From the NCBI GenBank assembly GCA_031426915.1, contig JASJPB010000007.1, positions 2,996-66,995 on the forward strand: DNA of 64,000 nt, given 5' to 3'. The DNA is from Sulfuricellaceae bacterium (GTDB lineage: Bacteria > Pseudomonadota > Gammaproteobacteria > Burkholderiales > Sulfuricellaceae). Positions within the stretch are counted from its first letter, which is position 1, and the number at the start of each line of letters is the position of its first letter. The notes beneath the pieces are model-generated. The model was not told the origin of the DNA. It made no database searches and saw nothing but the letters and a program-made list of their open reading frames with translations. The translations under genes and the position numbers were made by a program. This document shows, in pieces, positions 4,635 to 51,705 of the stretch.

Positions 4635-5942
4635 CTACCAGTGCGGAATCCTAGCCCATATTTTCTCCGGCACATAGGGGTGCCAGAGACGAATGCGCAG
4701 AAATTCCCGCAGCATGGAAAGCAGCTCCACCATATGAATCGGCAAGCGGTAAAAAGGGTAGAGCGGCACCAGCCACAGCATCTTCAAGCGGGGCGTGGAG
4801 GCGATGTCGTTGGCAATCAGCATCTTGATGAAAAGGAAGAAGGCGGTCAGCCAGTACATGACGGTCAGTAGCGCCGGCGCGGAGAAGGGGTCGCTCAAAG
4901 CGAAATAAATCACGCTCCACAGCGCGAGAAAGGGAAAAACGACCCGGAACAGCAGGATGTCGACGAAAACAAGCGCATTGACGATGCCAAAGTGCCAGAA
5001 GTGATAGAGATCTCCCTGCTTGTGCAGGCGGATCTTGACCATGTTCCGGGTCCAGCGGCTGCGTTGGCGCAACAGCCAGCCATAGTGGTCTGGCACATCG
5101 GTCCAGACGATGGCATCCAGCGCAAAGCGCAGTTTCCAGCCCTGCTTGCGCAAGCGTACCGTGAGGTCGGTGTCATCCCCCAGTCCCGAGTCGTAGCCGC
5201 CCAGTTGACGCATGGCGACGGCACGGAACATGCTGCCCGCACCGGGCAGAATCGACAGCAGATTCAAGGGTGCGCGCCACAGTCTGGAAATGCTCACGTT
5301 GAGCGCATATTCGCACTCCTGGAAGCGCGTGACCAGGTTGCGGGTCGCATTCTTCACGCGCAAATTCGCGGACACTGCGCCTACCCTGGGGTCGGCAAAA
5401 GGGGCGAGCAAATGCTGAATGATGCCGGGCTGCAGCTCGCAGTCCGCATCCGGCACGAAAATGAAATCTCCGCGCGCCAGAACCAGGCCGATATTCAGGC
5501 TGCTGGGCTTGCCGTTGTGGTTTTTTGCCTCGAATACGCGCACTCGCCCGGTTTTTTCCCATGCCCGTGCGCGCGCCACGCTCTCGTCGGTGGAGTAGTC
5601 GTCGACGAAAACGACCTCAAGATTTTGATAGCCGCATTGCAGTGCGGATTGAATCATTTTCGCAATGCTGTGCTCGACATTGCGCCCCGCGATGACGATG
5701 GAAACCAACGGGTTCGCGGGCAGGCCGGAACCTTGCGCGGCGGCCAGCGCGCGGGGGTAAAACAGGCAGGTCAGCCACAGCAGGATGTCGGGCAGCACAA
5801 AACGCATCAGGACCAGCACCACAAACCAGAAAAACAGATTGGCGGAAGTCAGCAGTTCGCCCAGTACGCGCGTCATCCCGCCCATGCTCACCAGGCTCAG
5901 CGGCGAGAGAAAGTACCCCAGGAAGCCATTCAGGTGTTCCAT
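4635..5942 (-). CDS. Processive GT2 polysaccharide synthase (PgaC/IcaA/HAS-like)
   Basis: VSIVIAGRN, DDYSTD, GKPSSLN, DADC (DxD), GDDTD, QRSRW (QxxRW); N- and C-terminal TM helices. Start chosen at MEHLNG. Confidence 0.9.
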   Translation of the reverse strand: MEHLNGFLGYFLSPLSLVSMGGMTRVLGELLTSANLFFWFVVLVLMRFVLPDILLWLTCLFYPRALAAAQGSGLPANPLVSIVIAGRNVEHSIAKMIQSALQCGYQNLEVVFVDDYSTDESVARARAWEKTGRVRVFEAKNHNGKPSSLNIGLVLARGDFIFVPDADCELQPGIIQHLLAPFADPRVGAVSANLRVKNATRNLVTRFQECEYALNVSISRLWRAPLNLLSILPGAGSMFRAVAMRQLGGYDSGLGDDTDLTVRLRKQGWKLRFALDAIVWTDVPDHYGWLLRQRSRWTRNMVKIRLHKQGDLYHFWHFGIVNALVFVDILLFRVVFPFLALWSVIYFALSDPFSAPALLTVMYWLTAFFLFIKMLIANDIASTPRLKMLWLVPLYPFYRLPIHMVELLSMLREFLRIRLWHPYVPEKIWARIPHW

Positions 5943-30175: not shown

Positions 30176-30195
30176 AGCTAAAGCACATAGCTAAA

Positions 30196-31116
30196 GGGTC
30201 AGGTCTTGACATCACGCTTTTCACCGTTCGTCCTTGATTACCTTACTCACAGTTGAATAATGTACCCCTGCTTCGCGCGCGATGGCCGCCATTGTGTAGC
30301 CGAACTCCTGGTAGGCGCGACGCATTGCCTCATCACGCGCCACCTTGTCCGCGCAGACATGCTTCGGAAACAGTTGCTCAAGGTTCGGCCGATGCAACTG
30401 CCGCTGGGCGCGTGGCACCTCGGTCAGTTCGGCCTTGTCTTCCAGCAAAGGCCGCATCTGCTCCGCAAACGCGTCCGACCCGAGCAGTATCTGTCCTTTC
30501 AGATCGGCCCACGGAGAAGGATGGCTTTTCCCTTCCGCCACGAAAGCGGCATAGCATCGTTGTGCCTCCGCCCGCGTCGGGGAAAATTGAGCGAGGAGCC
30601 AATCGGTGGACAGCCAGACAGGACGATCCAACTGTCCAACCGTCGCCGGATAGCTGCTCCAGGGGTAACTTGAAATCGACTTGACCATCTTGGCGCGGAC
30701 GGGGTTCAGGACGATATAACGGGCAAGCTCAAGGAGGTAACTGTCGCGATCCACCAGAATTGCCTTGAATCGACCCTGGAACACATGGCCCACGCGTCCG
30801 TGGCGACGGTTGAAACGCTGGGTATAGACCCCGTTCAACTGGCGCATGCCGAGCGACAGATTAGCGTCGGGGGTTTCGATCAGTAGGTGGTAATGGTTGC
30901 CCATCAGGCAGTAGGCATGGCAAACCCAGCCGTATCGCCCGATCACTTGCGCCAACACGTCCAGAAAAAGGTGGCGGTCCTCGTCATCAAGACAGATGTC
31001 CTGCCGTGCGTTGCCGCGTGCGGTGACATGGTAGAGCGCACCGGGAAATTCAAGTCGGAGGGGGCGGGCCATCGAGGTAGTCTAGTCGGTTTGAGTGGCA
31101 TGTCAAGACCTGACCC
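30196..31116. mobile_element. Y1 (HUH) transposase unit bounded by 17-bp inverted repeats
   Basis: GGGTCAGGTCTTGACAT at 30196-30212 and ATGTCAAGACCTGACCC at 31100-31116. Confidence 0.8.
30221..31072 (-). CDS. RAYT-like Y1 transposase with C-terminal HTH
   Basis: MARPLRLEFPGALYHVTARGN, AYCLMGNHYHLL (HUH), GHVFQGRF, RYIVLNPVRA. Confidence 0.92.
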   Translation of the reverse strand: MARPLRLEFPGALYHVTARGNARQDICLDDEDRHLFLDVLAQVIGRYGWVCHAYCLMGNHYHLLIETPDANLSLGMRQLNGVYTQRFNRRHGRVGHVFQGRFKAILVDRDSYLLELARYIVLNPVRAKMVKSISSYPWSSYPATVGQLDRPVWLSTDWLLAQFSPTRAEAQRCYAAFVAEGKSHPSPWADLKGQILLGSDAFAEQMRPLLEDKAELTEVPRAQRQLHRPNLEQLFPKHVCADKVARDEAMRRAYQEFGYTMAAIAREAGVHYSTVSKVIKDER

Positions 31117-31610
31117 CTTGGCTCCTGAAGGGTGAGGCTGTCGCCGGGCTTGATTCCCAGCCATTGGGCCGCGGCGGCGCTGAGGAAAATGGCTTGCGGG
31201 TCGAGCATCGCCGCGCCGGCTGCGTTCCCCTGCCCGTTTCCGATGCTCAGCGGCAGCAGGCGGGAAGCGTGGAACACGTCAACGCCCAGCAGCCTGAGCG
31301 TTTCGCTGCGGTCCGGCAGCCTCGCCTCGATCTCCAGCGCGGGGCTGGCAAGCGCCACTTCGGGCAGACGCGCCAGACGCGGATAGATGCTTTCGTCCAT
31401 GCCCGTGGCCGGACCCTGGACCGTCAGGTCGGCCTGCCCCGAGACGTTGCGCACTGCCTGGGAAAACTCGCTCACGGCGGCGCGGTTGATGAGATGGATG
31501 GAAACGCCCAGAGCCACCCCCAGTGCAATTCCCAGCACGCTCAGGAATATTCGCCCGGGGTGATCGCCGAAAGGCCCCAGCACGGCGCGGATGATGGCGG
31601 CGCGGTTCAT
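31117..31610 (-). pseudogene. 3'-truncated FtsX/MacB-type ABC permease
   Basis: RIFLSVLGIALGVALGVSIHLIN plus the start of the periplasmic domain; the frame runs into the inverted repeat after ~165 aa. Confidence 0.85.
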
Positions 31611-41067: not shown

Positions 41068-43356
41068 TTAGTTAATCGGTGAGGCCTCGTAAACGGTTAC
41101 CCGATTGCGCCCCTCACTCTTCGAGCGGTAGAGCATTTCATCTGCGTGGGCAAGCAGAGTGTCCATATCGTTGCCGTGCGCGGGAAATCCAGCGACACCC
41201 GCCGACAGCGTTACCCGAATATCCCATTCGCCGTGCCTCACCAGCGTTCCGGCCAGATCGGCTCGCCACAATTCAATCCGTTGCAACGCATGTTCGGCGG
41301 ACATTCTAGGCATGACTACCACGAACTCCTCGCCACCATAGCGGCAGATCACGTCGCTTTCGCGTGCACTTCGCTTCAAGAGTGCCGCCAGGGACCTGAG
41401 GACTTCATCGCCTGCAGCGTGACTGTAGGTGTCATTGATTTTCTTGAAGTGATCGAGGTCGATCATGATCACCGCCACCGGATAATTCTCGCGGCGGGCA
41501 CGCGCCAATTCACGTGGCAGGGCTTCATCGAGGTAGCCCCGGTTATAGATACCCGTCAGCGGATCGCGGATCGCCTTTTCCTGCAAGTCGATCTTCTCAT
41601 CGCTTAGTTCCTTGAGCTGGAATTCGAGATGGCGTTGTGACTGCTCCAGTTCGACGTCCTGCCGCCGGCGCTCGGTGATGTCACGACCGATCCCCTGGTA
41701 GCCGGCAATCTGACCGTTTGCGTCATAAATCGGAATGGTCAGAACGTCGATCCAGATGACGCGACCATCCTTGCAGCGTTGCGGAATCTCGAAGCGCAAG
41801 GCCTCATTCTTGCGACCCTCGGCTTCAAGCTGCTCGCGTTTTTCGAGCAACCTGGACAGCATCAGCTGGCCTTCCGGTGTCAGCGTGTCCGCAATCGATT
41901 GTCCAATCACTTCATCACGCGCAAAACCGCGCAGGCGGCGATCCGCGTCGTTGATATAGGTAAAGCGGTTCTCGCGGTCAGCCTTCCAGACGACATCGGC
42001 CATATTTTCCGCCAGCATGCGGAATTGCTCCTCGCTTGCGCGCAGTGCTATTTCGGCCAATTGGCGTGCGGTGATATCGCGAAAAGCCATTACCACGCCG
42101 TGCTTACCATCGAGATCGTCAGCCCTTGACGCGGCATACTCGACGGCAAATCCCTGCCCATCCTTTCTCCAGAAGTGGTCGGTACCAAGCTTTTCCGTTC
42201 CCTCGTTCAACAGCCTGCCAATGGGGCACTCACCATCAGGGTAAGGTGTGCCATCAGGCAGGGAATGATGAATGGTGTCGTGCAGACTTTTACCTACCAG
42301 TTCGCTCGCTGTGTAACCAAATAGTCGCGCACCAGTCGGATTGATGAACGCGACCCGACCCTGTGCATCGATTCCGCAGATGCCGTCTTCAACCGTGTCC
42401 AGCACCGTCTGCATGCGCCTGACCACGCTCTGTTCGCGTGCTCTCGCTTTTCTCGTAATATTGGCCATCCAGCCGGCGACAAGAAACAGAAGCGCGAGGG
42501 TGCTAACCAGCACCATGGCCCGCTGCCGCCAGGGCGACAGAATTTCGTCGCGGCTGAGGCTGACGACGATGGCAATGGGGAGGCCGGCATGCTTGCGATA
42601 GGCTATCCGCCGCGTAATGCCGTCGATCGCCGATACCGCGGTGAAGGTGCCTACCGACTGCTTCTTCATCTCGTCGAGCAACTTCAAGCTAAACCGCTTG
42701 CCCGCTGCACCGGCGTCGGGGTGGCGCATGATGACAGCACCGTCGCTGCGTGCCAGAGTATAAGCGGCGGTTTCGCCCAGCTTGAGTTCGCTGACCACCT
42801 GAATGAAGACGTCGATATCGATGGCCGCCATCGCCACCCCAGCGAAGGAGCCATCGGGCGCGTCGATGCGGCGGCTGAGGTTAAACACTTTCTTGCCCGT
42901 CGTCTTGCCGACGATGGTTTCGCCAATGAACAGGCCGACACCCTGCTGTTGCTGTGCAGTGAAGTATTCACGGTCGGTCGCGTTGTTGGTCGAATGACGC
43001 ATATGGGACGCCATCACCGCCGAGCCATCTGCACGGTAAAGCCACAGCCGTCCGCTGACCGGAAGCTTCTTGGCCATTTCAACGAAGTGTGGCCAGCGCC
43101 GATCTCCCCCACTTCCCATGATGTCGTGGTCGCGGACCTCGTCGAGCGCGCGATCGAGAATGTTGTTGGCGTTGGCAATCACATGGGAAGTATGGGTTTC
43201 GAGCAGCCGGGCGACACTCGCCAGCTGATTGTCGGCTGCCGCCAGCGTGGCCTGATAGTCATGCCACAACCAGGCGCCGGTTCCGGATACGACGGCTGCG
43301 CTGAGCAGTATCCATCTGAGAACGGAATAGGGCAATGGTTTAAACGGCAGAGGCAT
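41068..43356 (-). CDS. Diguanylate cyclase (TM-dCache-TM-PAS-PAS-GGDEF)
   Basis: DPLTGIYNR, IDLDHFKKINDTYSH, RYGGEEF, ADEMLYRSK; two PAS domains; Cache motif DREYF. Confidence 0.95.
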   Translation of the reverse strand: MPLPFKPLPYSVLRWILLSAAVVSGTGAWLWHDYQATLAAADNQLASVARLLETHTSHVIANANNILDRALDEVRDHDIMGSGGDRRWPHFVEMAKKLPVSGRLWLYRADGSAVMASHMRHSTNNATDREYFTAQQQQGVGLFIGETIVGKTTGKKVFNLSRRIDAPDGSFAGVAMAAIDIDVFIQVVSELKLGETAAYTLARSDGAVIMRHPDAGAAGKRFSLKLLDEMKKQSVGTFTAVSAIDGITRRIAYRKHAGLPIAIVVSLSRDEILSPWRQRAMVLVSTLALLFLVAGWMANITRKARAREQSVVRRMQTVLDTVEDGICGIDAQGRVAFINPTGARLFGYTASELVGKSLHDTIHHSLPDGTPYPDGECPIGRLLNEGTEKLGTDHFWRKDGQGFAVEYAASRADDLDGKHGVVMAFRDITARQLAEIALRASEEQFRMLAENMADVVWKADRENRFTYINDADRRLRGFARDEVIGQSIADTLTPEGQLMLSRLLEKREQLEAEGRKNEALRFEIPQRCKDGRVIWIDVLTIPIYDANGQIAGYQGIGRDITERRRQDVELEQSQRHLEFQLKELSDEKIDLQEKAIRDPLTGIYNRGYLDEALPRELARARRENYPVAVIMIDLDHFKKINDTYSHAAGDEVLRSLAALLKRSARESDVICRYGGEEFVVVMPRMSAEHALQRIELWRADLAGTLVRHGEWDIRVTLSAGVAGFPAHGNDMDTLLAHADEMLYRSKSEGRNRVTVYEASPIN

Positions 43357-43487
43357 GGTCAGTTGGAATCAGGCGAAGAATGTAGATCTTAAATCTAAAT
43401 TCTGGTAACTACCATTGTTCAGTGGAAAATCATGGCCCCGATTACGCCCACCGGCCTTGGTGCCCCGATAATTCCTTCACGGGGCGC

Positions 43488-43568
43488 GGGGTCAAGTCTT
43501 GATATCACGTTTTCGCTACTCTCTTTTATCGCTGTAGAACGGCAACCGCGATGTCAAGACTTGACCCC
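43488..43568. mobile_element. 81-bp non-autonomous element with the same ends as the 30196-31116 unit
   Basis: GGGGTCAAGTCTTGATATC...GATGTCAAGACTTGACCCC. Confidence 0.8.
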
Positions 43569-43706
43569 GACGTTTTTTCAACCAGGGTAGCGTCACGACA
43601 AAACAGGTAATGAGGATGGTGTTATTATTGCGAACATCATCGCATCATCAGGTTTTTACAACGCATGCCAAAGAAATTGCACCAACTATAATAAAATTAT
43701 TATAAT

Positions 43707-44099
43707 ATGCCCCCTATCCTTTACGACTATGTCAATATCCACGGTGAAAATGAGTTTAAGTCCTGGACAAAGGGGCTTCAGACCCAGCAAAAGGCAAAGC
43801 TTAATCAGAAGCTCGATCTGCTAAAGGCGCACGGTGAAGGCCTCTTTCCAGAGATACTGACTGGGACAGACACAGCCGGAATATTGAAACTTCGAGTAAA
43901 AGGAAACGTCCAACTTCGGCCCATGCTATGCAGAGGGCCGATTGACGTTGGTGGTGAATACACGCTATTGCTTGGTGCAAAAGAGGTTGGTGGCAAGTTG
44001 AAGCCACCCGGAGCTGACGCGACCGCCGAGTCATTAAAGTCTTGCGTTGCGAACGACCCGGCAAATAGGAGAACGGAACATGAAAAAGTTAGCAAATGA
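43707..44099 (+). CDS. RelE/HigB-superfamily toxin of a putative TAC system
   Basis: YDYVNIHGENEFKSW...KAKLNQKLDLL...ILKLRVKGNVQLRPML; first gene of a 3-gene operon. Confidence 0.7.
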   Translation: MPPILYDYVNIHGENEFKSWTKGLQTQQKAKLNQKLDLLKAHGEGLFPEILTGTDTAGILKLRVKGNVQLRPMLCRGPIDVGGEYTLLLGAKEVGGKLKPPGADATAESLKSCVANDPANRRTEHEKVSK

Positions 44100-44571
44100 A
44101 CTTATCGACGATTTCTCCGATAAAGAATATGCGCACAGTTACATGGAAAGTTATGTGAACGCTGAAATAGCGGCGCAAATAAAGGTGTTGCGAGAAGACC
44201 GGGGGTTTACCCAAGAACAACTCGCCGAGTTGGCTGGAATGAAACAGGAGCGCGTCAGCGCGTTGGAAGACGTGGATTATGACGCTTGGACAGTAAAGAC
44301 ATTGCGCAAGCTTGCACGGGCGTATGACGTTCATCTACAGGTGCGTTTCGTTCCATTCAGCCAAGGAATTCTCGATGTCACAAATCTTAGCCGTGGTCGT
44401 CTTCAAGTTGTGTCCAGAAAAGATGATCTACGCGAGTTTGTTCGTCACGAACTCGTAAATCCGGACGGGCAATGGAAACCGATTGACACGAAGGGGCTGC
44501 CAAAGTTGGTGGTTAAGTCCATTCGTGGTCCGATTGAGCCAAGCAATAACTGGCAACGACTTGCTGCATAA
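44080..44571 (+). CDS. XRE HTH antitoxin (HigA-like) with C-terminal extension
   Basis: IKVLREDRGFTQEQLAELAGMKQERVSALE; ~70-aa tail ending EPSNNWQRLAA. Confidence 0.85.
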   Translation: MKKLANELIDDFSDKEYAHSYMESYVNAEIAAQIKVLREDRGFTQEQLAELAGMKQERVSALEDVDYDAWTVKTLRKLARAYDVHLQVRFVPFSQGILDVTNLSRGRLQVVSRKDDLREFVRHELVNPDGQWKPIDTKGLPKLVVKSIRGPIEPSNNWQRLAA

Positions 44572-44581
44572 TGGGTTAAAC

Positions 44582-45088
44582 ATGGCTGAAGAGAATACTG
44601 AGACAAAGGGGGCCGCAGAGACTTTTACGTTGCGTGGCATTTATTTCCGCACCGTAGAAACAAAACTATTGAATGATTTCGACCCGCTTGCTCCAGGTCA
44701 ACAGCTTTCCGCGTTCTTTAGAAATACTGACGGCACCGTCGATTGCAGAGAAACTACAGTTTCAGATGGTACGAATAGCAGCCTTATTCATTCTTGTGCA
44801 TTCAACACGGGATTTGAGTTTGCCTACGTATTGATGACAGATGGGGAAGCCCCGTCAGATGAAGATAGAGAGAAGGCAACCGTAGCACTTATTAGCGCAT
44901 ATATTACCGCCGATTACTTGGTGCCAGGCCCCAGCTTTCCGGAACAAAATGTCTTAACTGGTTGGGCGACAACCAATGCGCTCTTGCACTGCTGGCCTTA
45001 TTGGCGAGAATTTTGCCAAAGCACCATGTTGCGCATGAATCTACCGGTTACTACAATCCCTCTCTTGCGTCTTCAACACAAAGTCTAG
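44582..45088 (+). CDS. SecB-like chaperone
   Basis: Acidic protein with C-terminal NALLHCWPYWREFCQSTMLRMNLPVTTIP, the SecB-like helix motif. Confidence 0.78.
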   Translation: MAEENTETKGAAETFTLRGIYFRTVETKLLNDFDPLAPGQQLSAFFRNTDGTVDCRETTVSDGTNSSLIHSCAFNTGFEFAYVLMTDGEAPSDEDREKATVALISAYITADYLVPGPSFPEQNVLTGWATTNALLHCWPYWREFCQSTMLRMNLPVTTIPLLRLQHKV

Positions 45089-45097
45089 TCGCAACAA

Positions 45098-45122
45098 GAA
45101 ACCCGCTTCGGCGGGTTTTCAT
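45098..45122 (+). terminator. Intrinsic terminator (probably bidirectional)
   Basis: GAAACCCGC-TTCG-GCGGGTTTTC between convergent genes. Confidence 0.85.
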
Positions 45123-45436
45123 TTCACTGTTCCGTCCGTGTTTCCATCGAGGTCCAGGCCTTGCATTTTATATATTCTCCCCGACCTTCCGCCCGTTTCA
45201 CTGCCCGGCTCACGGTAGAGCAACTTACGCGAATATTTCACCCACTTGGGCCGGTTGCGGATGGTGTCCATGCCGTTCACGCGTTCCCAGATCAAGCGTG
45301 TTTGTTCCTCATCGAGTAACAGCCACTTGTCCACCTCCTCGGCGGTACGTCCGCAACCTTTGCAAACAACATCTCCCAGGCTGGTGGAGCAGTAGCCGAT
45401 GCAGGGGGAACTCGGGGTTTTATGGCTTAACGTCAT
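45119..45436 (-). CDS. DUF1289-family protein
   Basis: SPCIGYCSTSLGDVVCKGCGRTAEEVDKW. Confidence 0.85.
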   Translation of the reverse strand: MTLSHKTPSSPCIGYCSTSLGDVVCKGCGRTAEEVDKWLLLDEEQTRLIWERVNGMDTIRNRPKWVKYSRKLLYREPGSETGGRSGRIYKMQGLDLDGNTDGTVK

Positions 45437-45484
45437 GGGTGCGGATTATACGCGCGACAGGTGACGGTGCATCGAAGCGCCGGA

Positions 45485-46882
45485 TCAGGATTCATCCGGG
45501 CGCACCATCGCAGCCGCCTGCACCCAGCGCTCGAATTCGGTCTCCGTCACATAGCCTGACGCCAGCGCCGCCAGCTTCAGGCTGGTGCCGTCGCGATATG
45601 CCCGTTTGGCGATTTCCGCCGCCCTGTCGTAGCCGATGTGCGGCGTCAGCGCAGTCGCCAGCATCAGGGATTGCTGCAACAGGGTTTCGATCCTGTCCCG
45701 GTTGGCCTCGATGCCGCGCGCGCAATATTTCTCGAAACTGTTCATGCCGTCGGCGAGCAGGCGCAGACTTTGCAGGAAATTGTGGGCGATGAGGGGCTTG
45801 AAGGTGTTCAGCTCGAAGCTGCCCGAGGCGCCGCCGATGTTGATCGCGACGTCGTTGCCGAAGACTTGGCAGCACAGCATGGCGAGCGCCTCGCACTGGG
45901 TCGGGTTGACCTTGCCCGGCATGATGGAACTGCCCGGCTCGTTCTCGGGAAGGGAGATTTCCCCCAGCCCCGATCTCGGCCCGGATGCCAGCCAGCGGAT
46001 GTCGTTGGCGATTTTCATCAGCGCGGCGGCGAGGGTTTTGAAGGCGCCGTGGGCGGCCACCAGCGCGTCGTGGGCCGCCAGCGCCGCGAACTTGTTGGCC
46101 GCGCTGCGGAAGGGCAGGGCATAGCTGCGTGCCAGTTCCGCCGCGACCAGCGGGCCGAAGGCGGCGGGGGTGTTGAGCCCGGTGCCCACCGCCGTGCCGC
46201 CGGCCGCGAGTTCCAGCAAGGCCGGTTGCGCGGCGACGAGCAGGGACTCCGCGTAATCCAGTTGCGCCACATAGCCCGAAAACTCCTGCCCCAGGGTCAG
46301 CGGAACCGCGTCCTGGAGATGGGTGCGGCCGATCTTGACGATGTCGGCGAATGCCGCGGAGCGGTTTGCCAGTGTCGCGCGCAGGTTGCGCAGCGCCGGC
46401 AGCAGTTGCCGCGCAATGCCCAGGCTCGCGGCCACATGTATGGCGCTGGGGAAAATGTCATTGGACGACTGGCCGAGATTGACCTCGTCGTTGGCATGCA
46501 CCAGCCGGGTTTCGCCCCTGTCGCCGCCGAGCAGTTCCGAGGCGCGATTGGCGAGCACTTCGTTGAGATTCATGTTGCTCTGGGTGCCTGAACCCGTCTG
46601 CCAAACCGAGAGCGGGAACTCCTGCTCGTGGCGGCCGGCCAGCACTTCGTCAGCGGCCCGGATGATGGCGTCCGCTTTTTTCCCGTCCAGCTGGGCCAGA
46701 TCGCGGTTGACGACGGCGCAGGCGCGCTTGAGCGCGGCCAGTGACAGGATCAACTCGGGCGCCATGCGCTCGGATGAAATCCTGAAATGCTCGATCGCGC
46801 GCTCGGTCTGCGCGCCCCACAGCCGGTCTTCGGCAACCGGGATGGTGCCGAAAGAGTCGCGTTCGATTCTGCTGACGCTCAT
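45485..46882 (-). CDS. fumC: Class II fumarate hydratase
   Basis: [51 protein letters not shown]. Confidence 0.97.
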
Positions 46883-47565: not shown

Positions 47566-49596
47566 ATGCCGCGCGATCTTCCCATCGGGAACGGTACCTT
47601 GCTCGCCGCTCATGATTTCGATTACCGGATACGCGATTTTTATTATCCGCGTGTCGGTAAGGAAAACCATGCGCTCGGTCACCCGTGGCGTTTCGGCGTG
47701 TGGCTGGAGGGCGAGTTTTCCTGGCTCGGGCGTGAAAACTGGAGAATTCAGCGCGATTACGTTTCCGGTGCGCTGGTCACCTCGGTAACGGCGTCCCATG
47801 CGCGCTTGCCGCTACGCCTGCATTTCAACGACGCCATCGACTATGAAAAAAACATCCTGGTGCGCAGGGTGCGGGTGCAAAACCTTTCCCGCCGCGCGCT
47901 GGAGCCGCGCCTGTTCTTCCACACCGACATCAACGCGCTGGAAAACGAGACCGGGGACACGGTTTTTTTCGACCCCAAGAATGCCTGTCTGATCCACTAC
48001 AAGGGTCCGCGCTATTTCCTCATGTGTTGCGCCACCGAAACCACGCTCGGCGTCACGCATTTTGCCACCGGCACCAAGCGCCATCGCGGCCTGGAAGGAA
48101 CCTGGCGCGATGCGGAAGACGGCGAGCTGAGCGGCAACCCGATTGCCCAGGGGGCGGTGGACTCGGTGATCGGCATGCATCTTCAACTTGAACCCGGCGC
48201 GGAAGCGGCGTGCCATTACTGGATGGCGGTGGGCGAGAGCTATCACGAGGTCGAGCAACTGCATCGGCTGGTCACCCAGATCGGCGCGGAGCGTCTGATC
48301 GAGCGCAATATCGATTATTGGCGCCACTGGGTTTCCGCCGGGGAACGCGACTTCGGCGCATTGCCTGCGCTGCTGGTGGAGTGTTACCGGCGCAGTCTGC
48401 TCATTCTGCGCACCCAGATCGATCATGGCGGGGCGGTGATCGCCGCCAACGATACCGACATCCGCCAGTTCAACCAGGATACCTACAGCTATATGTGGCC
48501 GCGCGACGGCGCCATCGTCGCCCAGGCGCTGGACCGCGCCGGCTTCGGCAGCCTGAGCCGGCGCTTCCTCGAATTCTGTACCCAGAAGGCGGTCAACTAC
48601 AATTATTCCGCCAGTATTCTGGCCGAGACCGGCTTCCTGATGCACAAGTACAATCCGGACGGTTCCGTGGGCAGTTCCTGGCAACCCTGGCTGGAAAACG
48701 AGGAAATGGTGTTGCCGATCCAGGAAGACGAAACCGCGCTGGTGATCTGGGCGATCTGGAACCATTACCTGATCCACCGCGACATCGAGGCCATCCGGCC
48801 CTTCTACAGTCCGTTCGTGGAACGGGCCGCCGACTTCCTGCTGGAGTTCCGCGACGAGAAAACCGGGCTGCCGCTGCCTTCCTTCGACCTGTGGGAGGAG
48901 CGGCGCGGCGTGTTCACCTATACCACCGCAACCGTGATCGGCGGGCTGAAGGCGGCCGCCAGCCTGGCTGCCCTGTTCCAGGAGGAGGAGCGCGCCAGCG
49001 CTTGGCTGAGCGGCGCGCTGGCGGTCCGGGCAGCGCTCGACCAGCATCTCTACTGTCCGCGCGAAGGGCGTTTCGCGCGCGGCATCCTGTTCGAGGATGG
49101 CCTCCAGACCAGGGACGCTACCGTCGACGCCAGCCTGCTGGGGCTGGTGATTTTCGGCGGCTACGACCCCCGCGACGAGCGGGTGGCGAGCACCATCCGC
49201 GCGGTCGAGCAGCGCTTGTGGCTGAAAACGGGCAGCGGTGGACTGGCGCGTTATGAAGGCGACGATTACCAGCGCATGGTGCAGCGCAAGGATGTGCCAG
49301 GCAATCCCTGGGTGGTGTCCACGCTGTGGCTGGCGCAGTGCCGCATCGCGGCGGCGCGCGACCGGCGCGAGCTGGATCTGGCCTTGCCGCTGCTGATGTG
49401 GGCGGCGGAGCGGGCGCTTGCGTCCGGGGTGCTGCCGGAACAGGTGCATCCGGAAAGCGGCGAGTTTCTGTCGGTCTCTCCGCTGACCTGGAGCCATGGC
49501 ACGCTGGTGGCGGCGGTGCTGGATTACATCGCGAAAGCGCAAATGCTGGGCAGCCCGCAGCCGCAGCTTGCCGTGGCCGAAATGGACAGGAGGTGA
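47566..49596 (+). CDS. Glycoside hydrolase family 15
   Basis: GAVIAAND, YSYMWPRDG, QEDET, DLWEERRG, GLARYEGDDY, LPEQV, SPLTWSH. Confidence 0.92.
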   Translation: MPRDLPIGNGTLLAAHDFDYRIRDFYYPRVGKENHALGHPWRFGVWLEGEFSWLGRENWRIQRDYVSGALVTSVTASHARLPLRLHFNDAIDYEKNILVRRVRVQNLSRRALEPRLFFHTDINALENETGDTVFFDPKNACLIHYKGPRYFLMCCATETTLGVTHFATGTKRHRGLEGTWRDAEDGELSGNPIAQGAVDSVIGMHLQLEPGAEAACHYWMAVGESYHEVEQLHRLVTQIGAERLIERNIDYWRHWVSAGERDFGALPALLVECYRRSLLILRTQIDHGGAVIAANDTDIRQFNQDTYSYMWPRDGAIVAQALDRAGFGSLSRRFLEFCTQKAVNYNYSASILAETGFLMHKYNPDGSVGSSWQPWLENEEMVLPIQEDETALVIWAIWNHYLIHRDIEAIRPFYSPFVERAADFLLEFRDEKTGLPLPSFDLWEERRGVFTYTTATVIGGLKAAASLAALFQEEERASAWLSGALAVRAALDQHLYCPREGRFARGILFEDGLQTRDATVDASLLGLVIFGGYDPRDERVASTIRAVEQRLWLKTGSGGLARYEGDDYQRMVQRKDVPGNPWVVSTLWLAQCRIAAARDRRELDLALPLLMWAAERALASGVLPEQVHPESGEFLSVSPLTWSHGTLVAAVLDYIAKAQMLGSPQPQLAVAEMDRR

Positions 49597-49600
49597 CGAC

Positions 49601-50887
49601 ATGGCGGACCCGAATTACGGAGCAGTGATTCCGCCCGAATTCGATGACGCGTCGCGCAACCTGCGCCTGGCGTTCCTCAAGTTCGACTCGCGCGACGTGG
49701 AATTACTGCACGATCTGGCCGGTTTGTTCCGGGAACGCAAGATGGAGATCGCCGAGCGTTTCTACGAGCACATGCTTGCCTTCGAGGATACCCGCAAGGT
49801 TTTCAGGGACGAGGCGATGATCCAGCGCCTCAAGCAGGCCCAGGCCAATTATCTGATGGAGGCGGTGGAGGGGCCTTACGATGCGGCCTATTTCGAGCGC
49901 CGCTGGCGCATCGGCTACATCCACAATGCCATCCTGGTGGAACCCCACTGGTTCATCGGCGCGTTCCAGCTCTATCACCGCATCCTTTACCCGATCATCC
50001 TGGAGCGTTACCGGGACGATGCGCAAGCGGTGGTGGACCACATCCTGGCGCTGGACAAGATCATGAACCTGGACCTGCAACTCGGCATCCAGAGCTATTA
50101 CGTTCATTACGAGGGCACCATGGACAAGCTGCGCGAGCTGAACCTGCGCATCGAGGCCGCGAGCACCGCCAAGAGCCAGTTCCTGGCCAACATGTCGCAC
50201 GAGTTCCGCACCCCGCTCAACGCCATCATCGGCTTCACCGAGGTGTTGCAGGACCGCATCCCCGGCGACCTCAATGCCGACCAGGAGGAATACCTGGGCG
50301 ACATACACGATGCCGGTCAGTTGCTGTTGCGCCTGATCAACGACGTGCTCGATCTGTCCAAGGTGGAAGCGGGCCGCCTGGAGCTGTTCTACGAAACTTT
50401 CCCCATCGCCCAGACCGCGCGCGAGACCATCACCACGCTGCGCGGCGCGGCGGAGAAAAAGGGCTTGTCTATCCAGGGAATCCTGCCGCCCGACCTCGGG
50501 CTGATCACGGCGGACCAGATCCGTTTCAAGCAGATCCTGTTCAACCTGTTGTCGAATGCGGTGAAGTTCACCGACAGCGGCGCCATCACGCTTTCCGCCG
50601 CGCTGGAAAACGATGGCCTGCACCTGTCGGTGGCCGATACCGGGATCGGTATCCGCGAGCAGGACATGAACCGCATCTTCGTCGAATTCAGCCAGGTGGA
50701 TGATTCACACGCGCGCCGCCATGAAGGGACCGGGCTCGGGCTGGCGCTATCCAAGCGCCTGGCGGAGGCGCACGGCGGGCGTATCTGGGTGGAGAGCACA
50801 TTCGGCGTGGGCAGCGTGTTTCACGTTCTGTTGCCGCTGCGTCCCGCCGAATCCAGGGCCAAGGCCGTCCAGGAGGAAATGAAATGA
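49601..50887 (+). CDS. Globin-coupled sensor histidine kinase
   Basis: N-terminal sensor globin (RWRIGYIHNAI); FLANMSHEFRTPLNAI; NLLSNAVKF, DTGIGI, GTGLGL. Confidence 0.92.
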   Translation: MADPNYGAVIPPEFDDASRNLRLAFLKFDSRDVELLHDLAGLFRERKMEIAERFYEHMLAFEDTRKVFRDEAMIQRLKQAQANYLMEAVEGPYDAAYFERRWRIGYIHNAILVEPHWFIGAFQLYHRILYPIILERYRDDAQAVVDHILALDKIMNLDLQLGIQSYYVHYEGTMDKLRELNLRIEAASTAKSQFLANMSHEFRTPLNAIIGFTEVLQDRIPGDLNADQEEYLGDIHDAGQLLLRLINDVLDLSKVEAGRLELFYETFPIAQTARETITTLRGAAEKKGLSIQGILPPDLGLITADQIRFKQILFNLLSNAVKFTDSGAITLSAALENDGLHLSVADTGIGIREQDMNRIFVEFSQVDDSHARRHEGTGLGLALSKRLAEAHGGRIWVESTFGVGSVFHVLLPLRPAESRAKAVQEEMK

Positions 50888-51705
50888 GGCACGAGGGCTT
50901 GGACAGCAGCTTGTGCGGTCCGGTCGCAGGGCGCTGCCCGGACCCGCTCAAAACCATCCTGGTGGTGGAAGACAACCCCCAGGCGGCCAAGCTGCTGTCC
51001 CTTTACCTGATCCAGGCGGGCTACCTGGTCATGGTCGCATCCAACGGCTGCCAGGCGGTGCAACTGGCTACGCAATGCCACCCGCTGGCGATCACGCTGG
51101 ACATATTGCTGCCCGACCAGGACGGCTGGCAGGTGCTGTCCGAACTCAAGGCCTCGCCCCTTACCCGCGACATCCCGGTGGTGATCGTGTCGGTGCTGGA
51201 TCGCCAGGCGCTCGGTTTCAGGCTGGGCGCCTCGGACTATCTGGTCAAGCCGGTGGAACGCGCCGACTTGCTGCATGCGCTGCGGCGCTGCATTCCGCGC
51301 GAGGGCGAGAACGGCGTGTGCCACAAGGTGATGGTGGTGCATACCAACCCGGAGGAATTGAACCTGCTGGCCATGATCCTGGCGCAGGAAAACTACCAGG
51401 TGATCCAGGCCCTGGGTTCGGAGGAGGCGGCCAGCCTGGCCAAATATGCCCATCCCGATCTGGTGGTGACCAATCTGGTGGCCGGCGGAATGGATTTTTT
51501 CGCCCTGCTGGAAGGCCTCAGGGCGGCACCGGAGACCGCGACCATCCCGGTCCTGGCCCTGACGCCGTGGGTTTTCGGCGCCAGGCAGGGCGCGCCGGTG
51601 GAGGAGGGGATCGAGTTTGTGCTGATGCGGGAAAACGAACTGGTCGAGGAACGCCTGCTGTCTGCCGTTACCCTGCTGTTCAAGCGGGAAAAGCAGGCCG
51701 GCTGA
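50884..51705 (+). CDS. Tandem receiver protein (REC + pseudo-REC)
   Basis: Domain 1 has VEDN and ITLDILLP; domain 2 has Asn at the phospho-Asp position (LVVTNLV). Confidence 0.88.
   Translation: MRHEGLDSSLCGPVAGRCPDPLKTILVVEDNPQAAKLLSLYLIQAGYLVMVASNGCQAVQLATQCHPLAITLDILLPDQDGWQVLSELKASPLTRDIPVVIVSVLDRQALGFRLGASDYLVKPVERADLLHALRRCIPREGENGVCHKVMVVHTNPEELNLLAMILAQENYQVIQALGSEEAASLAKYAHPDLVVTNLVAGGMDFFALLEGLRAAPETATIPVLALTPWVFGARQGAPVEEGIEFVLMRENELVEERLLSAVTLLFKREKQAG

Follow-up and report, generated by a model that had tools for sequence, protein, structure and literature searches.

Positions 43707-45088 of the stretch analysed here, 64,000 nucleotides (nts) of contig JASJPB010000007.1 from a Sulfuricellaceae bacterium (hereafter the window), raise the question of whether three small and tightly packed genes, designated g1, g2 and g3, constitute a toxin-antitoxin-chaperone (TAC) system. 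TACs, which have been described on HigBA, MqsRA and HicAB cores since 2011-2016, are the clearest case of a chaperone acting as a toxin-antitoxin switch, and in Escherichia coli the chaperone is a phage sensor as well. We conclude that the region is an intact cassette of a toxin, an antitoxin and a SecB-like chaperone, and we consider it likely that the locus is a working chaperone-dependent TAC. It is a divergent lineage of the HigBA-type TAC class and not a different kind of system, and it is called divergent because its proteins match neither the Pfam SecB model nor the HigB/Gp49 models.

Every feature of a TAC that can be checked on sequence or structure was found. The three genes are co-oriented and linked, with one promoter-like site and one terminator. 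The core is of type II, with g1 nearest to the HigB/HigB2 fold and g2 matching PF01381 and HigA2. The third gene is a SecB homologue by fold, by sequence match to Rv1957 and by hhalign, and the antitoxin has a variable tail with aromatic motifs at W132 and W158. For the window itself this is an annotation result that brings no new principle; it places the same TAC architecture in groundwater and sediment bacteria, with named relatives mostly in the Betaproteobacteria.

Gene content and predicted folds

The toxin gene g1 occupies 43707-44099 on the plus strand and encodes 130 amino acids (aa), and it is followed on the same strand by the antitoxin gene g2 at 44080-44571 (163 aa, from ATG) and the SecB-like gene g3 at 44582-45088 (168 aa, from ATG). 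The g2 open reading frame (ORF) as listed opens at a TTG at 44047, and ATG 44080 was used instead, this being the start of the homologues and also of the database gene call P0159, whose protein is identical to g2; the homologues of g3 likewise begin at ATG 44582. With these starts, g1 and g2 overlap by 20 nts, g2 and g3 are separated by 10 nts, and the sequence AGGAG is located at 44067-44071, 8 nts 5′ of the g2 ATG. The GC content of the cassette is 47.4% compared with 60.8% for the window, and it is the lowest among all 1.5-kb windows of the 64 kb (median 0.61). These three packed ORFs correspond to the low-GC three-gene operon described in an earlier note, which had been made from the sequence alone.

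Searches of the PDB with the single sequence of g1 and with a g1 profile yielded chance-level matches only, and for this reason a fold search was needed to place the toxin. The AlphaFold2 (AF2) model of g1 (predicted local distance difference test score, pLDDT, 91.3) has the RelE/ParE (BECR) fold, in agreement with the RelE-like toxin proposed before. The best Foldseek match was Streptococcus pneumoniae HigB (6af4; E = 3.5e-5, TM 0.71/0.77, root-mean-square deviation 3.0 Å over 124 columns), followed by Vibrio cholerae HigB2, Proteus vulgaris HigB (including the ribosome-bound form), YoeB and RelE. The 229 homologues of g1 are all unnamed and without Pfam domains, the window protein matched none of the HigB/Gp49 models PF05015, PF09907 and PF05973, and PHROGs gave a marginal 'toxin' match. 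When 38 members of the g1 family were scanned singly, 11 of them gave weak matches to PF05973 (Gp49; best E = 5.8e-4), none of which was shown to reach Pfam's own cut-off. According to a 2025 survey, HigB1 and HigB3 are among the toxin names in PF05973, and this family consists of toxin-first, ribosome-dependent mRNA-degrading toxins.

Polar residues invariant in the g1 family are D7, N15, K61, R71, E93, R121 and R122, and H125 and E126 are kept in at least 90% of its members. Judged from this alignment, K61, R71, R121, R122 and H125 may form an RNase site, and g1 is presumably a ribosome-dependent mRNA endonuclease. A ParE-like gyrase poison was considered as well and rejected, since the nearest structures are those of the RNase-type toxins HigB, YoeB and RelE and since the conserved basic residues and His are compatible with an RNase. 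In hig operons, too, the toxin gene comes first and the antitoxin is of the XRE type. Taken as a whole, g1 is divergent in sequence and HigB-like in fold, gene order and partner; the earlier description of the toxin as not a typical HigB thus holds at the level of sequence, where no Pfam model matches, and fails on the HigB-nearest fold, the weak Gp49 matches of its relatives and the toxin-first order.

The AF2 model of g3 (pLDDT 86.6) consists of a four-stranded sheet and a long helix, and the top 19 Foldseek matches in the PDB are all SecB. The best of them, 5mtw_C (E = 1.7e-6, TMt 0.75), is the Mycobacterium tuberculosis TAC chaperone Rv1957 with the chaperone addiction (ChAD) peptide, and it ranks above the SecB of E. 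coli and Haemophilus influenzae. The third gene had been called SecB-like in the earlier note, which named a fold other than that of SecB as the result that would speak against its proposal; the predicted fold is that of SecB. Rv1957 is also the best PDB sequence match of g3 (5mtw chain C; E = 0.0064 with the single sequence and 7e-4 with a 39-sequence profile), with an identity of only ~17-19% over the Foldseek alignment. Four residues invariant in the g3 family, E143, R151, L154 and P155, align in HMMER to the same-numbered residues of Rv1957 (native numbering, after removing the 3-residue offset of the PDB chain). In Rv1957, a charge pair conserved in SecB is formed by E143 and R151, and the residues touching the ChAD peptide include L154 and P155, which are among those most sensitive to mutation (PMC6377645).

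No match of g3 to Pfam SecB (PF02556) or NCBIfam SecB was found at E values up to 1, and its match in PHROGs is phrog_16879, a family of unknown function. Distant relatives were found by tblastn on Vibrio, Acinetobacter, Shewanella and Ralstonia replicons, mostly annotated as SecB, and in the two that were opened the g3-like gene is the third in an operon of a hypothetical protein, an MqsA antitoxin and SecB. Alignment of the g3 family with the Vibrio plasmid 'SecB' by hhalign gave a probability of 98.3% (E = 1e-14) over the full length, and the two share FDP and WPYWRE...RM(N/R)LP motifs. The SecB-like gene of MqsRA-type plasmid TACs in Vibrio and Acinetobacter (NZ_CP117056.1, NZ_CP034095.1) is thus the closest annotated relative of g3, is third in a T-A-C operon as g3 is, and belongs to the same chaperone clade, whereas the antitoxin there is a zinc-ribbon MqsA (PF15731) instead of an XRE HigA and the SecB has ~25% identity to g3. 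A search of 1.84 billion cluster representatives with the g3 profile returned 2187 relatives at E ≤ 1e-3 and 72 at E ≤ 1e-30, indicating that the clade is real and of modest size. By fold and by sequence, g3 is clearly a SecB-fold protein of the SecB-TA/HigC type.

These results bear on the explanation that g3 is a housekeeping export SecB that merely stands beside a HigBA pair. The SecB fold is what this explanation predicts, and NCBI labels the plasmid relatives 'preprotein translocase subunit SecB'; yet g3 matches neither PF02556 nor the NCBIfam SecB model, lies inside a 0.47-GC cassette of a 0.61-GC window, always travels with g1-g2 in unrelated contexts (see below), and belongs to a group of only 2187 representatives among 1.84 billion, whose annotated members are also within toxin-antitoxin operons. 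We regard a housekeeping SecB as extremely improbable, and a chaperone dedicated to the TAC remains our interpretation of g3.

The divergence of both proteins has a practical side. A public contig identical to window positions ~41070-45900 (L010) has stored gene calls that include g2 and neither g1 nor g3, and no 100%-identical database protein was returned for g1 or g3. The two genes, divergent and of low GC, were apparently missed by automatic gene calling on this contig. Annotation pipelines may miss such modules in general, because none of the Pfam, NCBIfam and PADLOC models recognises the toxin or the chaperone lineage.

The antitoxin tail and its published counterparts

The helix-turn-helix (HTH) domain of g2 (PF01381, E = 1.6e-9) covers residues 34-87 (44179-44340), and the best PDB match of the g2 profile was M. 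tuberculosis HigA2 (7ewc, E = 2e-8), with HigA3 also matched. By these matches, g2 is a HigA-like XRE HTH repressor with a C-terminal tail. The earlier note had given it an extension of ~70 aa ending in PSNNWQRLAA. This ending was read in g2, and ~75 aa do lie beyond the Pfam HTH, whereas the family alignment has a conserved body at residues 88-120 and a variable tail only from residue 121. Because conservation runs through residue 120, the variable extension is ~43 aa (residues 121-163; 44440-44568, plus strand) and not ~70 aa.

This ChAD-like tail contains two Trp motifs, GQW132KPID (Trp codon 44473-44475) and NNW158QRL (44551-44553), with a hydrophobic stretch between the two Trp residues that reads LPKLVVKSI in g2 and HLAVV in relatives. 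The Trp motif pointed out earlier is the second of them; W132, which was missed then, is kept in at least 90% of the g2 relatives, a higher conservation than that of the terminal W158. When the tails of 52 distinct antitoxins linked to a g3-family gene were compared, at least one Trp was found in 48 of them, exactly two in 28 and one in 19. The distance from the first to the last Trp in the 29 tails with two or more is 23-32 residues, with a median of 26, and it is also 26 in g2.

In M. tuberculosis HigA1, the ChAD is located at residues 104-EVPTWHRLSSYRG-116, as correctly given in the earlier note, and its key residues are W108, R110 and Y114 (PMC6377645). A second motif there is 137-WARHISVR-144, in which the Trp is W137, and in E. 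coli HigA, four aromatic residues recur every 30 residues and occupy equivalent pockets of the chaperone. The terminal W-x-R-L of g2 had been matched to the M. tuberculosis peptide in the earlier note; in relatives, its Trp and the hydrophobic residue at +3 are all that recur. A match of four letters in g2 alone is weak evidence, and the conserved Trp spacing is the stronger argument. With this spacing, the pattern of the g2 tail follows the published ChAD logic in a shorter form. The C-terminus of g2 is LAA-COOH, and a terminal Ala is present in 17 of the 52 relatives, which makes it frequent without being universal; ClpX recognises an Ala-Ala C-terminus, as described for the ssrA tag and for CmdA, and M. 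tuberculosis HigA1 ends in Val-Ala.

The system closest in logic is M. tuberculosis HigB1-HigA1-SecB-TA (Rv1955-Rv1956-Rv1957). It shares with the cassette the T-A-C order, a toxin near the Gp49/HigB family, and an XRE HigA with a ~45-aa tail in which two Trp motifs are located ~26-29 residues apart (WHRL and WARH in HigA1, WKPI and WQRL in g2), and both antitoxins end in an aliphatic residue and Ala (VA and AA, respectively). In contrast, g2 has no equivalent of the ChAD Y114 and its second motif is at the very C-terminus, g1 has no above-threshold Pfam match, and the host is from an environmental Gram-negative lineage. The HigBAC system of E. coli NT1F31 likewise combines a HigB-type toxin, a HigA ChAD with spaced aromatics and a SecB-like HigC, and in its published model the ChAD and a phage protein are rivals for the chaperone (Mets et al. 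2024). There, the ChAD has 96 aa and four aromatic motifs compared with ~43 aa and two in g2, the operon is in a prophage defence locus whereas the cassette of the window lies between housekeeping genes, and the loss of HigA does not need ClpXP, whereas the terminal LAA of g2 suggests that ClpXP may be needed. S. pneumoniae HigBA (6af4) and V. cholerae HigBA2, the best structural matches of g1, are toxin-first with an HTH antitoxin as in the cassette; unlike the cassette, they are two-gene pairs without a third chaperone gene, and V. cholerae HigBA2 was used by Bordes et al. as a classical two-component system. With its two Trp motifs, hydrophobic patch and LAA end, the g2 tail offers a compact ChAD for dissecting minimal chaperone addiction.

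A further protein was found in the search of representatives. P0281 (354 aa) has a g2-like N-terminus, a scrambled tail and a full g3-like domain (residues 174-330). It was considered as an antitoxin-chaperone fusion that would be evidence of interaction and was rejected, since its tail looks frameshifted; it is probably a frameshift in the tail reading through into g3 and not a true fusion.

Linkage of the genes, putative control signals and metatranscriptome contigs

The order and orientation of g1-g2-g3 are kept in nine of nine reference-genome loci (Sterolibacterium, Sideroxydans, Gallionella, Nitrosomonadales, Sulfuricella, Hydrogenophilales, Rhodoferax, an unclassified betaproteobacterium and a gammaproteobacterium), and among the named relatives Betaproteobacteria prevail and some Methylococcales also occur. 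In a metagenome scan of 80 loci, which was anchored on the toxin alone and was therefore unbiased regarding g3, most loci had a g3-family gene directly after g2, and those without it mostly ended too soon after g2. The genes overlap or nearly abut across the homologous loci, an arrangement that speaks for translational coupling. Fifteen loci extend 1.5 kb or more beyond the cassette at either end; duplicate contigs aside, their flanks are not related to one another, and no flanking gene was common to the window and the homologous loci except a 30%-identical GGDEF-domain match in L026. These results indicate that the cassette moves as a unit and is found in unrelated flanking contexts. On one betaproteobacterial contig (L008), a 63-nt stretch is present with 94% identity both upstream and downstream of the TAC, and these repeats may mark insertion boundaries.

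Distant g1-g2 pairs, with 45-51% identity to g1, carry a different third gene. A DUF3467 gene (E = 1.8e-8) takes this place in L083 (5256-5681), L087 (1737-2072) and L089 (1531-1866), and a gene for ~220 aa in L070 (1352-2011), L081 (1469-2119), L085 (1674-2375), L086 and L090 (both 4876-5577) and L088 (4879-5586). A 138-aa family is found in L075 (2120-2536), L076 (1736-2152) and L080 (916-1446), and a 148-aa protein with a weak SecB match in L018 (4881-5327). Neither the ~220-aa nor the 138-aa family gave a Pfam or PDB sequence match, PDB sequence searches of two of the alternative third genes gave no match, and hhalign detected no homology of the g3 profile with the DUF3467 third gene or with the 148-aa protein of L018. 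No link of DUF3467 to toxin-antitoxin systems was found in the literature searched. The antitoxin tails beside these genes are longer and lack the two-Trp pattern. The alternative third genes may be alternative addiction partners or sensors, and we tentatively propose, as a rather unlikely extension, that the HigB/HigA-like core is a modular 'warhead' whose tail co-evolves with an exchangeable third gene. If the non-SecB third genes likewise acted through the antitoxin tail, by stabilising or by sensing, they would represent new classes of addiction chaperone or of phage sensor; in any case, third genes of such different kinds in relatives suggest that non-SecB chaperone or sensor families may exist.

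The same comparisons bear on a simpler explanation, in which the locus is a two-gene HigBA pair where g2 suffices for neutralisation, g3 is an accessory holdase or sensor, and the tail serves toxin binding or oligomerisation. It gains from a tail of only ~43 aa with two motifs in which neither the Arg nor the C-terminal degron is conserved, and from the conserved body at residues 88-120, which means that part of the supposed extension is not a ChAD. Nevertheless, g2 and g3 are strictly linked and coupled across diverged loci in unrelated contexts, the spacing of the two Trp residues is constant, the tail changes together with the third gene, and g3 has a dedicated TAC chaperone as its nearest structure with the ChAD-contact residues invariant. 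A self-sufficient pair is improbable on this evidence, and the chaperone-dependent TAC is preferred.

A consensus scan returned a promoter-like site at 43665..43692 on the plus strand with 10 of 12 matches, which is a pattern match only, composed of a -35 ATGCCA (43665-43670), a 16-nt spacer and a -10 TATAAT (43687-43692). The palindrome TATAATAAAATTATTATA (TATAAY-N6-RTTATA; 43687..43704, assigned to neither strand) overlaps the -10 box, which is its left half, and ends 2 nts before the g1 ATG. The leader would therefore be very short, with few nts before the g1 ATG. The palindrome has no other match within the 64-kb window. With up to one mismatch, it is present within 60 nts upstream of g1 in 35 of the 42 distinct homologous loci and is exactly 2 nts from the ATG in 27 of those 35, and the upstream DNA around it is not conserved among the loci. 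The count of the palindrome elsewhere in the loci (45 in 406 kb) was inflated by duplicate loci and by loci in which the g1 start was missed by the pattern, and did not serve as a null; a cleaner control is provided by the window, with its one match. It is likely that the palindrome is a HigA-type operator for autorepression by the HTH dimer of g2. In the sub-clade of L007, L030, L045, L053, L059 and L060, the palindrome ends 30-33 nts before the ATG instead of 2, and an extended -10-like sequence, TGTGCTAGAGT or TGTGATAAAGT, follows it; in these loci the operator is kept and the promoter geometry is changed.

At the other end, a terminator-like hairpin is located at 45098..45119, between g3 and the convergent DUF1289 gene. 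It has a 9-bp GC-rich stem followed by a U-rich run, with an RNA folding energy of -14.2 kcal/mol (z = -3.07), in accordance with the terminator placed after g3 by the earlier note. A simple terminator scan missed this hairpin and folding confirmed it. Since an A-run and a U-run lie on its opposite sides, the hairpin is potentially bidirectional and is given no strand.

Contigs from two sediment metatranscriptomes are ~95% identical to the cassette and together cover g1, g2 and g3, although such contigs may include contaminating DNA. One of them, 880 nts in length, runs from g2 through g3 and ends at 45082, just before the terminator, and no coverage of the flanking genes was seen. The exact sequence is present in groundwater metagenomes. 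These data were also considered with respect to a decaying or silent cassette in which the ORFs are intact by chance. Chromosomal toxin-antitoxin modules often degenerate, and the gene caller on the public contig listed g2 only; against this, the three ORFs are full length compared with their homologues and have all the family-invariant residues, the operator and terminator are intact, and transcript-derived contigs of close relatives cover the operon. Decay is thus very improbable, and the cassette is best read as an intact TAC.

Proposed mechanism, phage defence and neighbouring features

Several points weigh against a working TAC. Toxic action, neutralisation, dependence on the chaperone and binding to DNA are properties that we infer, and neither g1 nor g3 has an above-threshold match in Pfam, NCBIfam or PADLOC. 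The comparison of g3 with Rv1957 covers E143, R151, L154 and P155 and not the N-terminal pocket residues D27 and R29 of Rv1957. Among the antitoxins, Trp is absent from 4 of the 52 SecB-linked tails, relatives as a group keep neither the Arg of W-x-R-L nor the LAA end, and Y114 has no counterpart in g2, since its chain stops 5 residues beyond the terminal Trp. The metatranscriptome contigs, as mentioned, may be partly of DNA origin.

The mechanism that we propose for the TAC is as follows. The locus would be a horizontally acquired, self-contained HigBA-type module in which g1 would cleave mRNA on the ribosome and thereby stop translation, while g2 dimers would bind g1 and repress the operon at TATAAT-N6-ATTATA over the -10 box. 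The 43-aa tail would destabilise g2, either by aggregation at the LPKLVVKSI patch or by recognition of LAA by ClpXP, and a g3 tetramer would shield this tail by holding the W132 and W158 motifs in its peptide grooves. If g3 were titrated away, g2 would be lost and g1 freed, leading to growth arrest or abortive infection. By analogy, g3 might be drawn away by a structural protein of a phage or by an overload of unfolded client proteins.

Whether phage defence is the main role of the locus is a separate matter, which we consider possible and somewhat doubtful. The idea comes only from analogy with E. coli HigBAC and CmdTAC. Some phage-metagenome proteins have a SecB fold. On the other side, PADLOC gave no match for g1 or g3, a tblastn search of phage genome records with g3 gave no match, and the neighbourhood contains no defence island or prophage and consists of housekeeping genes. 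Upstream of the cassette and divergent from it is a PAS-GGDEF gene (41068-43356, minus strand), and downstream is the convergent DUF1289 gene (45119-45436, minus strand); the other neighbours are a fumarase-like ORF and redox enzymes. An Rfam scan of the whole window found no RNA family.

Two further features of the window were observed. An IS200-like Y1 transposase ORF (PF01797; 30221-31072, minus strand) lies in the region 30195-31117 between inverted copies of GGGGTCAGGTCTTGA. This 15-mer also forms a hairpin at 43487-43569, ~140 nts upstream of the TAC, with 26-nt arms that are 88% complementary and a 31-nt loop. The transposase and the GGGGTCAGGTCTTGA copies look like a REP-associated transposase with REP/REPIN elements. 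At 49496-51705, a histidine kinase with a protoglobin domain (PF11563 + HisKA + HATPase_c) precedes a response regulator, and this pair looks like a globin-coupled two-component sensor unrelated to the TAC.

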